Virus record (IMG/VR): IMGVR_UViG_3300048839_001287
Span: 1 to 58,045 of that record
From: a virus
Taxonomy: Duplodnaviria > Caudoviricetes
Strand: one strand, 5' to 3'
Length of the DNA stretch: 58,045 nt
The position numbers were made by a program, and so were the translations under genes. Positions within the stretch are counted from its first letter, which is position 1. The number at the start of each line of letters is the position of its first letter. A model generated the notes under the pieces. That model did no database searches, was not told the origin of the DNA, and saw only the letters and a program-made list of their open reading frames with translations. This document shows, piece by piece, positions 564 to 54,342 of this stretch.

Positions 564-639
564 CAGTGTTTCGGCCTCATAGTTCAAGGGATAGAACCGC
601 GGTCTTTAAGCTATAATAGGAGCACATAGTTAGTAATAA

Positions 640-1161
640 TTATGTGAATTCTGGCTGTTCAGGAAAGTCTAAAAATAACAAGCCATGGTCAAATTCCCAG
701 TGGCAATTTCTGCATAACTGAATTATGTTATTGCGAGCATTTGCTTCGCCTACCGTTTGGTCTTCAGAAAATGAAGATAGTGGTTTTATATGACATAATT
801 CTACATGCTTGTCATAACCACAGTTTGCACATGGGAGCTTTATTAAATCCTTGTATTTGCTTCTTGCAAGTCCTCGGATATGAGCATTTTTACTGGAAGT
901 GTGAAGATTAGTTAAACATTTTCTGTTCCAGTATTCTTTTAAAGGAAGAGTTTGAAAATAATCATAACGAGTTTCTGTATATTCTTTATGGTGTTTTTCA
1001 CATAATGTGTGTCGGTAACTCTTTACTGGTTTACCACATTTAGTGCAAGTTTTCTTAGTTTTCCTTTTAGGATAAAGCTTATTCGTAACAATTGCAGCAC
1101 AAGAACTAGAACAAAACTTTGGATTGTTTGTCTCTTTGTTGCAGTTAATACAGTTATTCAT
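640..1161 (-). CDS. Intron-encoded HNH homing endonuclease, antisense to the intron
   Basis: CANCG...ELCHIKP...NARNNIIQLCRNCHWEFD HNH/zinc motif plus N-terminal Cys clusters (CINC...FCSSSC; CTKC...LCEKH). Confidence 0.85.
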   Translation of the reverse strand: MNNCINCNKETNNPKFCSSSCAAIVTNKLYPKRKTKKTCTKCGKPVKSYRHTLCEKHHKEYTETRYDYFQTLPLKEYWNRKCLTNLHTSSKNAHIRGLARSKYKDLIKLPCANCGYDKHVELCHIKPLSSFSEDQTVGEANARNNIIQLCRNCHWEFDHGLLFLDFPEQPEFT

Positions 1162-1257
1162 GATAATCGTGAGCTTATTTATTTAATAAATGAGTGCAGA
1201 GACTGTACGCCAGACACCCCACCATATAAAATGAGGGTGAAGAGACAGTCCAGACCA

Positions 1258-1266
1258 CAAATATAC
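1258..1266 (-). promoter_or_regulatory. Candidate Bacteroidota -7 promoter box (TAnnTTTG) for the HNH gene
   Basis: Minus strand GTATATTTG about 95 nt upstream of the HNH ATG, with the same context as the box at 54242-54250. The motif is short and can occur by chance. Confidence 0.45.
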
Positions 1267-1441
1267 ACAAAATAATCGAACAACGAGGTTTTATTTTAAT
1301 ATAAGTTAAAGTTCGAGTGTATAGCGATGAAAATCGTAGTCGGTAAGCTAAACCGCTAATTCCAGTTCGAGTCTGGATGGGGCTACTAATAAAAAATAAA
1401 AAAGAATTTTATACCTTTCTAAAGCTTTAAGAAGCCCTGCA

Positions 1442-54241: not shown

Positions 54242-54250
54242 CAAATATAC
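54242..54250 (-). promoter_or_regulatory. Candidate Bacteroidota -7 promoter box (TAnnTTTG)
   Basis: Minus strand GTATATTTGC lies intergenic, just downstream of a terminator and about 15 nt before the ATG at 54226. Confidence 0.6.
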
Positions 54251-54291
54251 AAAATAAATTTAAGAACCGTTTTTTCAATTTAAGGTTATAT

Positions 54292-54322
54292 AAATAAAAA
54301 AGGCACACCCATTAGATGTGCC
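54292..54322 (-). terminator. Intrinsic terminator after the endolysin
   Basis: Minus strand GGCACATCT-AAT-GGGTGTGCC followed by TTTTTTATTT. Confidence 0.75.
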
Positions 54323-54342
54323 CCAAAACCAGAAAAACATTC

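Follow-up and report, generated by a model that had tools for sequence, protein, structure and literature searches.

Homing endonucleases in group I introns are textbook knowledge. Those in bacterial tRNA genes fall into four classical classes, Leu.3Ug, Arg.5Ug, fMet.2Ug and Ile2.5Ug, all of subgroup IC3, to which passages of one report add 17 new ones (10.1101/2020.01.27.920355), and excerpts of another mention putative introns in the bacterial tRNA-Arg-TCT genes of Beggiatoa and Thiomargarita (PMC4853749). For phages, the relevant section of a 2014 review places all introns then known in protein-coding genes, despite the many phage tRNA genes (PMC3984707). In passages on mycobacteriophage LittleE, the group I intron of the capsid gene carries a nuclease gene, gp14, that lies opposite to its host gene (Pope et al. 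2013, PMC3706429); parts of two further papers describe sense and antisense His-Cys box nuclease genes in group I introns of nuclear ribosomal DNA (rDNA) (PMC9548176, PMC3679873); and phage T4 SegB appears in an excerpt as a free-standing nuclease at tRNA genes (PMC2330249). Here we describe a 58,045-nucleotide (nt) stretch of viral DNA (the window; Caudoviricetes, IMG/VR record IMGVR_UViG_3300048839_001287, a 58-kb record with an estimated completeness of 58%), in which a tRNA-Arg(UCU) gene is split by a group I intron that holds a gene for an HNH nuclease on the opposite strand. We consider it probable that this is a mobile intron of the bacterial tRNA type in a phage tRNA-Arg(UCU) gene, and that its counter-oriented HNH nuclease is made from a separate transcript and owes its orientation to inheritance.

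With introns allowed, ARAGORN finds the tRNA-Arg(UCU) gene at 573-1386 on the plus strand, 73 nt long once a 741-nt intron is removed. The insert, 607-1347, splits the gene between nucleotides 34 and 35, in the anticodon loop, and the exons form a canonical cloverleaf in the ARAGORN output. The parts of the gene and of the intron are as follows, with P1, P4, P5, P7 and P10 drawn by hand from the sequence.

573..606, plus strand: 5' exon of tRNA-Arg(UCU), tRNA positions 1-34 (ARAGORN); U606 precedes the 5' splice site
604..622, plus strand: P1, 604-606 with 620-622, including the U606-G620 wobble (read from the sequence)
604..622, plus strand: guide stretch 617-619, able to pair with 1348-1350 (P10)
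607..1347, plus strand: group I intron, 741 nt, of bacterial tRNA (IC3-like) type (ARAGORN, alignment, pair table, own covariance model); G1347 is the terminal (omega) G
623..646, plus strand: P2 hairpin, 10 pairs, with a GUAA loop at 633-636 (sequence; aligned to the P2 of the model)
637..646, plus strand: P2', the 3' strand of P2 (sequence, alignment)
650..655, plus strand: 5' strand of P3, pairs with 1209-1214 at 6 of 6 positions (3-5 pair types per position across 20 introns)
658..663, plus strand: 5' strand of P4, pairs with 1167-1173, G1169 bulged (sequence and alignment; drawn by hand because the alignment register is one column off in the pair table)
668..679, plus strand: P5, 668-670 with 1160-1163 (from the sequence)
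668..679, plus strand: P5a, 674-679 with 1153-1158 (likewise drawn by hand from the sequence)
1174..1194, plus strand: P6 hairpin, short, 8 pairs (alignment, pair table)
1195..1214, plus strand: J6/7, 5' strand of P7 (1199-1204, A1200 bulged; pairing with 1247-1251) and 3' strand of P3 (1209-1214), matching the Rfam and own-model consensus
1215..1239, plus strand: P8 hairpin, 1215-1219 with 1235-1239 (pair table)
1240..1258, plus strand: J8/7 and 3' strand of P7, conserved stretch CCAGACCAC (Rfam match, motif scans, pair table)
1262..1323, plus strand: extended P9 hairpin, 62 nt, stem 1262-1268 with 1317-1323 (alignment)
1324..1337, plus strand: P9a hairpin, GAAA loop (all 5 pairs form in 20 of 20 sequences)
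1348..1386, plus strand: 3' exon of tRNA-Arg(UCU) (ARAGORN)

Relatives of the intron were gathered by scanning viral contigs for the J8/7-P7 motif, and the flanks of at least 80 loci (designated L) were retrieved. In an alignment of 20 introns, comprising 16 phage tRNA introns that lack an open reading frame (ORF) together with the window, L057, L010 and L023, all loop-5 inserts being cut out, the window intron contains every core block; P6, P8, P9 and P9a likewise pair, and covariation is seen in P3, P6 and P9a. The block TAGGAGC in the P1/guide region is common to the window and its relatives in both alignment and model, and 1255-1258 pairs with 1339-1343 in the pair table. A covariance model that we trained on 15 ORF-less phage tRNA introns, and whose E-values are rough, gives 49.7 bits (E about 6e-14) for 1075-1361 (+) of the window. 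When 560-1400 is searched unfiltered, the same model matches 1089-1361 (+) with 46.4 bits (E about 7e-15) and 596-732 (+) with 8.1 bits (E 0.0047); in the latter match the exon end, the guide sequence, P2 and J2/3 are correctly aligned. No minus-strand match in 560-1400 is better than E 0.2. The hand-drawn pairing gives the intron a U606-G620 wobble at the splice site, the terminal G1347 and a guide able to pair with both exons. Judged by its core sequence and structure, the insert is a group I intron on the plus strand, as in the bacterial tRNA type. Many aligned relatives lie in tRNA-Leu(UAA), and likeness to these introns suggests subgroup IC3.

Several observations weigh against a functional intron. 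The general Rfam model, RF00028, gives 17.5 bits over 1054-1264 against a cut-off of 50, the match covering J6/7, P7, P3', P8 and J8/7 at about 1190-1264, and the intron is not matched at the Rfam gathering threshold. P4 has a bulged G, P1 has just 3 exon pairs, P9 is 62 nt long compared to about 10-14 nt in ORF-less relatives, and L5 holds about 470 nt of foreign sequence. If these traits marked a splicing-dead intron, the tRNA-Arg gene would be a pseudogene broken by a selfish insertion. We find this highly improbable. A sub-threshold score is expected, since the foreign sequence splits the model; indeed, all ORF-bearing relatives miss the RF00028 cut-off too, and the ORF-less relative L017 passes it with 56.5 bits. 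The bulged G of P4 is also seen in L057 and L010, whose nucleases are merely 55-59% identical, every conserved core block is in place, and J6/7 and J8/7 are identical or nearly so to those of ORF-less relatives; to this are added the terminal G and the cloverleaf of the exons. A tRNA-Arg(UCU) intron at the identical site in L056 (981-1602) exceeds 535 nt, has no ORF of at least 50 amino acids (aa) and differs in its 5' region; this relative may be degenerate or have expanded in another way.

The loop L5 of the intron, closed by P5 and P5a as read from the sequence, is occupied by the nuclease gene, the sole ORF of at least 90 aa between 1 and 1900.

640..1161, minus strand: HNH homing-endonuclease gene, 173 aa (ORF list, Pfam, PHROG, selection, alignment, fold model)

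The protein matches Pfam HNH_2 (PF13391; E 1.6e-7, 31.5 bits, cut-off 21) and PHROG 1271, 'HNH endonuclease' (6.6e-11). Residues 111-164 make up an HNH core, and the N-terminal part resembles a Cys4 zinc ribbon. Each of the 15 relatives aligned keeps the zinc and catalytic residues C111, C114, H124, N141, N145, C150, C153 and H154. Its fold model has a predicted local distance difference test score (pLDDT) of 89.9, with 72 and 48 for the last two 10-residue blocks, and the best rows from Foldseek are all HNH nucleases (Cap5, TagI, McrA, Gme HNH), matched weakly (E at least 0.076, template modelling score at most 0.3). A sequence search of the PDB gave nothing relevant, a chance antibody match alone, and tblastn against phage records gave two distant partial matches and no others. 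Compared to seven relatives, the ORF shows, over 8 pairs, 0.26-0.41 non-synonymous changes per site (pN) and 0.69-0.93 synonymous changes per site (pS, saturated). The low pN against saturated pS indicates that the lineage has been maintained as a protein; by this measure, the HNH ORF is under lineage-wide purifying selection.

Homing endonuclease genes commonly decay after fixation, and it is this usual course that could make the HNH gene a silent or decaying passenger, in an intron kept by vertical descent and with an ORF intact through recent insertion. The searches for close relatives of the window phage that could show presence/absence polymorphism found none, as this alternative would allow: blastn of 560-1400 against 50,697 phage records gave zero matches, an exact 25-nt exon pattern, used to look for an intron-less allele, gave 0 matches, and relatives of a neighbouring 167-aa protein were not found in viral contigs. 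However, the ORF is unbroken and retains every invariant catalytic and zinc residue, and the substitution rates point to long-term selection on the lineage, though not on the window copy, so that we regard a silent passenger as quite unlikely.

The gene and the ribozyme share sequence at both ends of the ORF. A sequence-only reading of this stretch had placed the ORF on the strand opposite the tRNA and the intron, with its stop and last codons (640-670) complementary to P2', P3 and P4. The coordinates (640-1161 on the minus strand, 573-1386 on the plus strand), the alignment and the pair table bear out both statements and extend the overlap to 679. The start codon is the complement of 1159-1161, within the P5 internal loop, and codons 2-3 are the complement of the 3' strand of P5a (1153-1158). 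At the other end, the final 13 codons (residues 161-173) run backward through P5a, P5, J4/5, P4, J3/4, P3 and J2/3, and the stop at 640-642 sits in the 3' strand of P2. Conservation of the protein is lowest in this tail, relatives aligning over residues 1 to about 162-165, and so is the confidence of the fold model. We infer that the overlap is tolerated because it affects only codons 2-3 and a C-terminal tail that is poorly conserved and probably disordered.

The layout recurs. L057, L010 and L023 each have a tRNA-Arg(UCU) gene split at the same site (34/35) with an antisense HNH_2-type ORF in L5, their anticodons having been re-read from the ARAGORN calls by placing the terminal G. To place these introns among their relatives, we took a census of ARAGORN split-tRNA introns of at least 400 nt with the core motif (2 duplicate and 5 motif-less rows dropped). 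Among the matches listed, the 34 phage tRNA introns that were left comprise 22 with a sense ORF of at least 80 aa, 6 with an antisense ORF (the window, L010, L023, L057, L118 and L132) and 6 with none. These counts are not independent, as L010 and L023 came via the protein search and several sense rows are near-copies. Nineteen of the 21 sense ORFs scanned match HNH-type Pfam families and 2 match PD-(D/E)XK families at E <=0.01, many of the matches lying under curated cut-offs; the sense PDDEXK_5 ORFs are those of L101 and L114. The split-tRNA calls at L027 and L052 were rejected as false, neither having the core motif, and the 'intron' of L027 holds the 3' half of another tRNA. In L132 (1419-2157), the antisense relative is 122 aa long, and two tandem repeats of about 50 nt lie on its own strand between the ribozyme core and its start.

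That the HNH gene is read from a counter-transcript, as the sequence-only reading proposed, follows from geometry: a gene antisense to an intact-looking intron could be read solely from a minus-strand transcript. The reason offered for this orientation, that a tRNA precursor is not an mRNA, finds no support, since 22 of the 34 introns in the census carry sense nuclease ORFs; evidently, a readable nuclease gene can reside in a tRNA precursor. Ancestry of the nuclease lineage accounts better for the orientation. A tRNA lies within 400 nt in 36 of the 54 phage loci that encode an HNH relative, on the opposite strand in 25 and on the same strand in 11, and in 15 phage loci the neighbour is tRNA-Arg(UCU). 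The other 18 loci, which have no tRNA by plain ARAGORN, include the intron-borne L010 and L023 and also L036-L038; in some of the remaining tRNA-less phage loci, Rfam finds weak tRNAs. Among the closest relatives, L002, L003 and L008 have an HNH gene convergent with, and overlapping the 3' end of, an unusual tRNA-Arg(UCU). L037 combines a free-standing HNH gene (2001-2498) with a convergent tRNA(CAU) at 2500-2790 on the minus strand, which contains an ORF-less group I intron of 192 nt.

Similar arrangements are found in bacteria, where 54 loci with HNH relatives come from Chloroflexota, Planctomycetota, cyanobacteria, Hymenobacter, Saccharibacteria and others. The intron model matches 17 of the 54, in all 17 opposite the HNH strand and in 16 enclosing the HNH gene, and ARAGORN assigns 11 of them to tRNA-Arg(CCU). 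At least 22 further bacterial loci have an intron-less tRNA-Arg opposite the HNH strand. In a protein tree, intron-borne copies are interleaved with free-standing ones, and the starred branches require at least 2 state changes; a starred branch sets L023 apart from the remaining three copies that are intron-borne. With 62% identity, the free-standing copy in L002 is nearest to the window HNH. Since the lineage is mostly oriented against the tRNA, whether free-standing or intron-borne, the orientation looks inherited, and inheritance from the nuclease lineage is its most likely source. The simplest reading of the tree and the loci would be that a counter-oriented free-standing nuclease targeting tRNA genes entered introns more than once and kept its orientation.

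Three points weigh against this account. The HNH gene lies on the tRNA's own strand in 11 of the 36 phage loci, so that orientation is not a strict family trait. The tree is poorly resolved, with 25 of 40 inner branches below 80, and transitions can be counted merely as 'at least 2'. A second nuclease family occurs in both orientations, antisense in L118 and sense in L125, the two proteins being 41% identical (E 3e-34). These two are tRNA-Leu introns (L118, 855-1626; L125, 768-1600), and the P9 extension of L118 holds TATAAT on the nuclease strand.

Orientation could also have been selected for regulation, the counter-transcript pairing with the intron and controlling splicing and the supply of tRNA-Arg(UCU); antisense control of both had been raised in the sequence-only reading. 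Any mRNA for the HNH protein is antisense to 522 nt or more of the intron, P2'-P5 among them, and a start near 1250 would add complementarity to P6, P7, P3' and P8. Nothing in the data requires such a function, however, and 22 of the 28 ORF-bearing related introns among the matches listed use sense ORFs. Because the HNH lineage opposes tRNA genes even where it is free-standing, outside introns, its orientation needs no function in splicing, and we judge a selected regulatory role to be decidedly unlikely.

In L002 (1890-2690), L003 (1890-2690) and L008 (1890-2680), and also in L040 (171-245), the tRNA-Arg(UCU) that accompanies the free-standing HNH relatives is unusual in having a D-loop without GG and the T-loop TTGGAAT rather than TTCGAAT. 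The pair of HNH gene and unusual tRNA-Arg is flanked by 5' and 3' fragments of another tRNA, and the D-arm and variable loop of the 5' fragment in L002 are identical to those of the tRNA-Arg of the window. The nuclease gene and its spare tRNA look like a cassette inserted into a tRNA gene.

For the start of a minus-strand transcript of the HNH gene, the best candidate is a box that had been noted earlier at about 95 nt from the gene and that lies, more exactly, 96 nt before the ATG.

1258..1265, minus strand: candidate promoter box TATATTTG (motif scans), 96 nt upstream of the HNH ATG at 1161

The box is the sole minus-strand TAnnTTTG in 1200-1300 and also the sole one within 330 nt upstream of the HNH gene. 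Its likeness to an intergenic site at 54242-54257, already part of the sequence-only reading, is real, although the regular expression then given was one letter off: the latter site is TTATTTTGTATATTTG, to which the intron site adds a GT. The 54242 site is the sole other intergenic minus-strand box in the window, with an almost identical 16-nt context. At 54242-54330 on the minus strand, a G+C-rich hairpin with a T-run (about 54296-54325) precedes TTATTTTGTATATTTG, which lies 15 nt upstream of a start codon; this unit is the clearest terminator-promoter-gene arrangement of the window. Promoters of Bacteroidota have the consensus TTTG ... TAnnTTTG, in which TAnnTTTG is the -7 box and the TTTG lies about 19-21 nt upstream.

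The box also opens the 62-nt P9 extension, which among the 20 aligned introns is found in the window and L057 only; L010 and L023 have a P6 extension instead. Extensions of this kind can hold predicted promoters in bacterial relatives. Sigma-70-type promoters scoring at least 10/12 lie inside the P6 extension on the nuclease strand in 4 of 15 bacterial intron-borne loci and on the tRNA strand in 0 of 15; 200 resamplings yielded 0.14 such loci on average and never more than 1. L180, L181, L210 and L214 (from Chloroflexota and a cyanobacterium) are tRNA-Arg(CCU) introns with near-consensus -35 and -10 elements about 65-90 nt upstream of the antisense HNH gene. It is thus well supported, at the level of predicted promoters, that HNH relatives carry a promoter of their own inside a peripheral helix.

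For the window itself, several observations tell against the box. TAnnTTTG is not enriched in the window (81 observed versus 80 expected, both strands), the TTTG half is the complement of the conserved ribozyme stretch CCAGACCACAAA, and no TTG partner lies 18-22 nt upstream. The sequence-only reading had named conservation of the box in homologous introns as a check, and the outcome is largely negative: among the five other antisense introns, the box is found in L057 alone (position -106) and is absent from L010, L023, L118 and L132. A start at the box implies an unusually long leader of about 90 nt; the window's other intergenic box on that strand lies 15 nt from its gene. The consensus of Bacteroidota may not be that of the host, and its relevance to the box draws on the general consensus and one other site. 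A sigma-70-type scan of 1-2400 gave no minus-strand site in 1161-1400, with 6 sites in total, under the shuffle mean of 7.9, and a shared upstream motif was not found across the intergenic regions of the window. As evidence for a promoter of the gene's own, the box is weak; the P9 extension that goes with it and the promoters predicted in bacterial relatives speak in its favour. We retain TATATTTG as a candidate for the actual HNH promoter, but consider it less likely than not.

The counter-transcript could instead start elsewhere, from a promoter beyond the 3' exon (1387-1524), by pervasive antisense transcription, or through a phage-specific polymerase with an unknown signal, and the box would then be a by-product of ribozyme sequence and an AT-rich P9 stem. 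The lack of enrichment, the fixed TTTG half, the absence from four of the five other antisense introns and the long leader would all be expected on this alternative. The window encodes DNA polymerase, helicase, primase and giant virion proteins (1324-3200 aa), and phages with giant virion proteins can bring their own polymerase. On the other hand, the P9 extension is confined to the two introns with the box, bacterial relatives have their promoters within the intron, and there is neither a sigma-70-like minus-strand site in 1161-1400 nor a minus-strand TAnnTTTG in 1387-1524. A start outside the box is possible, though we lean away from it.

Upstream of the HNH gene in the Hymenobacter relatives, strict TAnnTTTG is found in none. 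These relatives (L206-L209 and L216) are free-standing and adjoin tRNA-Arg(CCU), and 5-25 nt upstream of position 1501 they have a conserved GGCAATAT...TAAnTTGA that ends 5-6 nt before the ATG. This stretch may be the promoter of a nearly leaderless message.

Taken with the favoured reading of a mobile intron with an inherited, counter-oriented nuclease, these results suggest the following course of events. The pre-tRNA would be transcribed on the plus strand along with the neighbouring tRNA-Met, and the ribozyme core, in which all elements of P1-P10 are present, would splice itself out to yield a normal 73-nt tRNA. The HNH nuclease would have a transcript of its own on the minus strand, begun within the 3' part of the intron or a little past its end; the likeliest of the candidate starts is behind the TATATTTG box, where the P9 extension has its foot. 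The enzyme would then act on co-infecting phages, nicking or cutting their tRNA-Arg(UCU) genes where these lack the intron, and repair would copy the intron in. As to this target, the earlier proposal of intron-less tRNA-Arg genes fits, in that relatives adjoin intron-less tRNA-Arg, and cleavage itself we infer. The lineage is found in three settings: free-standing by an intron-less tRNA, free-standing by an ORF-less intron, and inside an intron.

A more far-reaching version makes one HNH lineage a parasite specialised on tRNA-Arg genes, in phages as well as in several bacterial phyla, which moves between the three lifestyles with a promoter built into P6 or P9, and whose counter-transcript ties nuclease expression to the transcription and splicing of the tRNA, the orientation being adaptive. 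The tie would work, for example, through transcriptional collision or RNA duplexes, and the free-standing lifestyle would come with a spare tRNA-Arg. This we think rather unlikely.

Up to about 23.5 kb the genes of the window lie on the plus strand, and from 23.9 kb they lie on the minus strand, a layout that we take to be reminiscent of crAss-like phages. At 23957-50505 on the minus strand lies a series of very large ORFs of 1335, 3200, 1742, 709, 545 and 1324 aa, two of which match PHROGs of giant virion structural proteins; the 3200-aa ORF also has an RNase H-like stretch. Default ARAGORN misses the split tRNA-Arg and, like Rfam at the gathering threshold, finds just two unsplit tRNAs, tRNA-Met at 491-564 and tRNA-Leu(UAA) at 2214-2298. 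Standard tRNA and Rfam scans overlook such split genes, and phage tRNA-Arg(UCU) is therefore under-counted, which is of relevance to annotation.

In the literature searched, antisense nuclease genes were not described in tRNA-gene introns or in phage tRNA introns, as far as the passages found extend, and an Arg class at loop position 3 may already be listed in 10.1101/2020.01.27.920355. Absent from that literature as a combination are phage tRNA genes as common hosts of such introns, antisense nuclease genes whose two ends run through core helices, peripheral helices with promoter-like inserts, and one HNH lineage that tracks tRNA-Arg across phages and bacteria, in and outside introns. If confirmed, the locus and its relatives would provide a natural series for how a free-standing nuclease gene invades an intron, a model for one DNA stretch as ribozyme and coding sequence on opposite strands, and a case in which the nuclease is expressed independently of a strongly transcribed host gene.

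The window intron resembles the bacterial tRNA introns in its anticodon-loop site, the U before the 5' splice site, the terminal G, the compact core and the P2 and P9 hairpins, and its insertion after loop nucleotide 3 is at the site of the classical tRNA-Leu(UAA) intron. It differs from the classical bacterial introns in lying in a phage tRNA-Arg(UCU) rather than at the tRNA-Arg(CCU) site after the anticodon, and in its 522-nt opposite-strand ORF and 62-nt P9 extension. The tRNA-fMet intron of Synechocystis reportedly encodes I-Ssp6803I, a PD-(D/E)XK enzyme, on the intron's own strand (a finding ascribed to Bonocora and Shub, 2001). Both are group I introns of tRNA genes with a homing endonuclease aimed at the anticodon region, but the window has an HNH enzyme on the opposite strand. 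Nuclear rDNA introns, as the passages cited at the outset describe them, likewise have a nuclease gene opposite a host gene for a non-coding RNA and raise the same question of expression, but they are eukaryotic and polymerase II-dependent, with spliceosomal introns and another nuclease family. The LittleE intron is, from its published passages, a phage precedent for an antisense intron nuclease, but its host gene codes for protein and its nuclease belongs to an unrelated family, and those passages hold no discussion of ribozyme-core overlap or of a promoter (PMC3706429).

The free-standing relatives of the window HNH in phage tRNA clusters, and L037 with its HNH gene by an ORF-less intron, recall collaborative homing. 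In this process, said to have been described by Bonocora and Shub (2009) and Zeng et al. (2009), an intron acts with a neighbouring free-standing nuclease, and an intron beside a free-standing nuclease is a proposed step toward the invasion of the intron by the nuclease gene. SegB, in contrast, is a GIY-YIG protein, and the nuclease of the window is already inside its intron.

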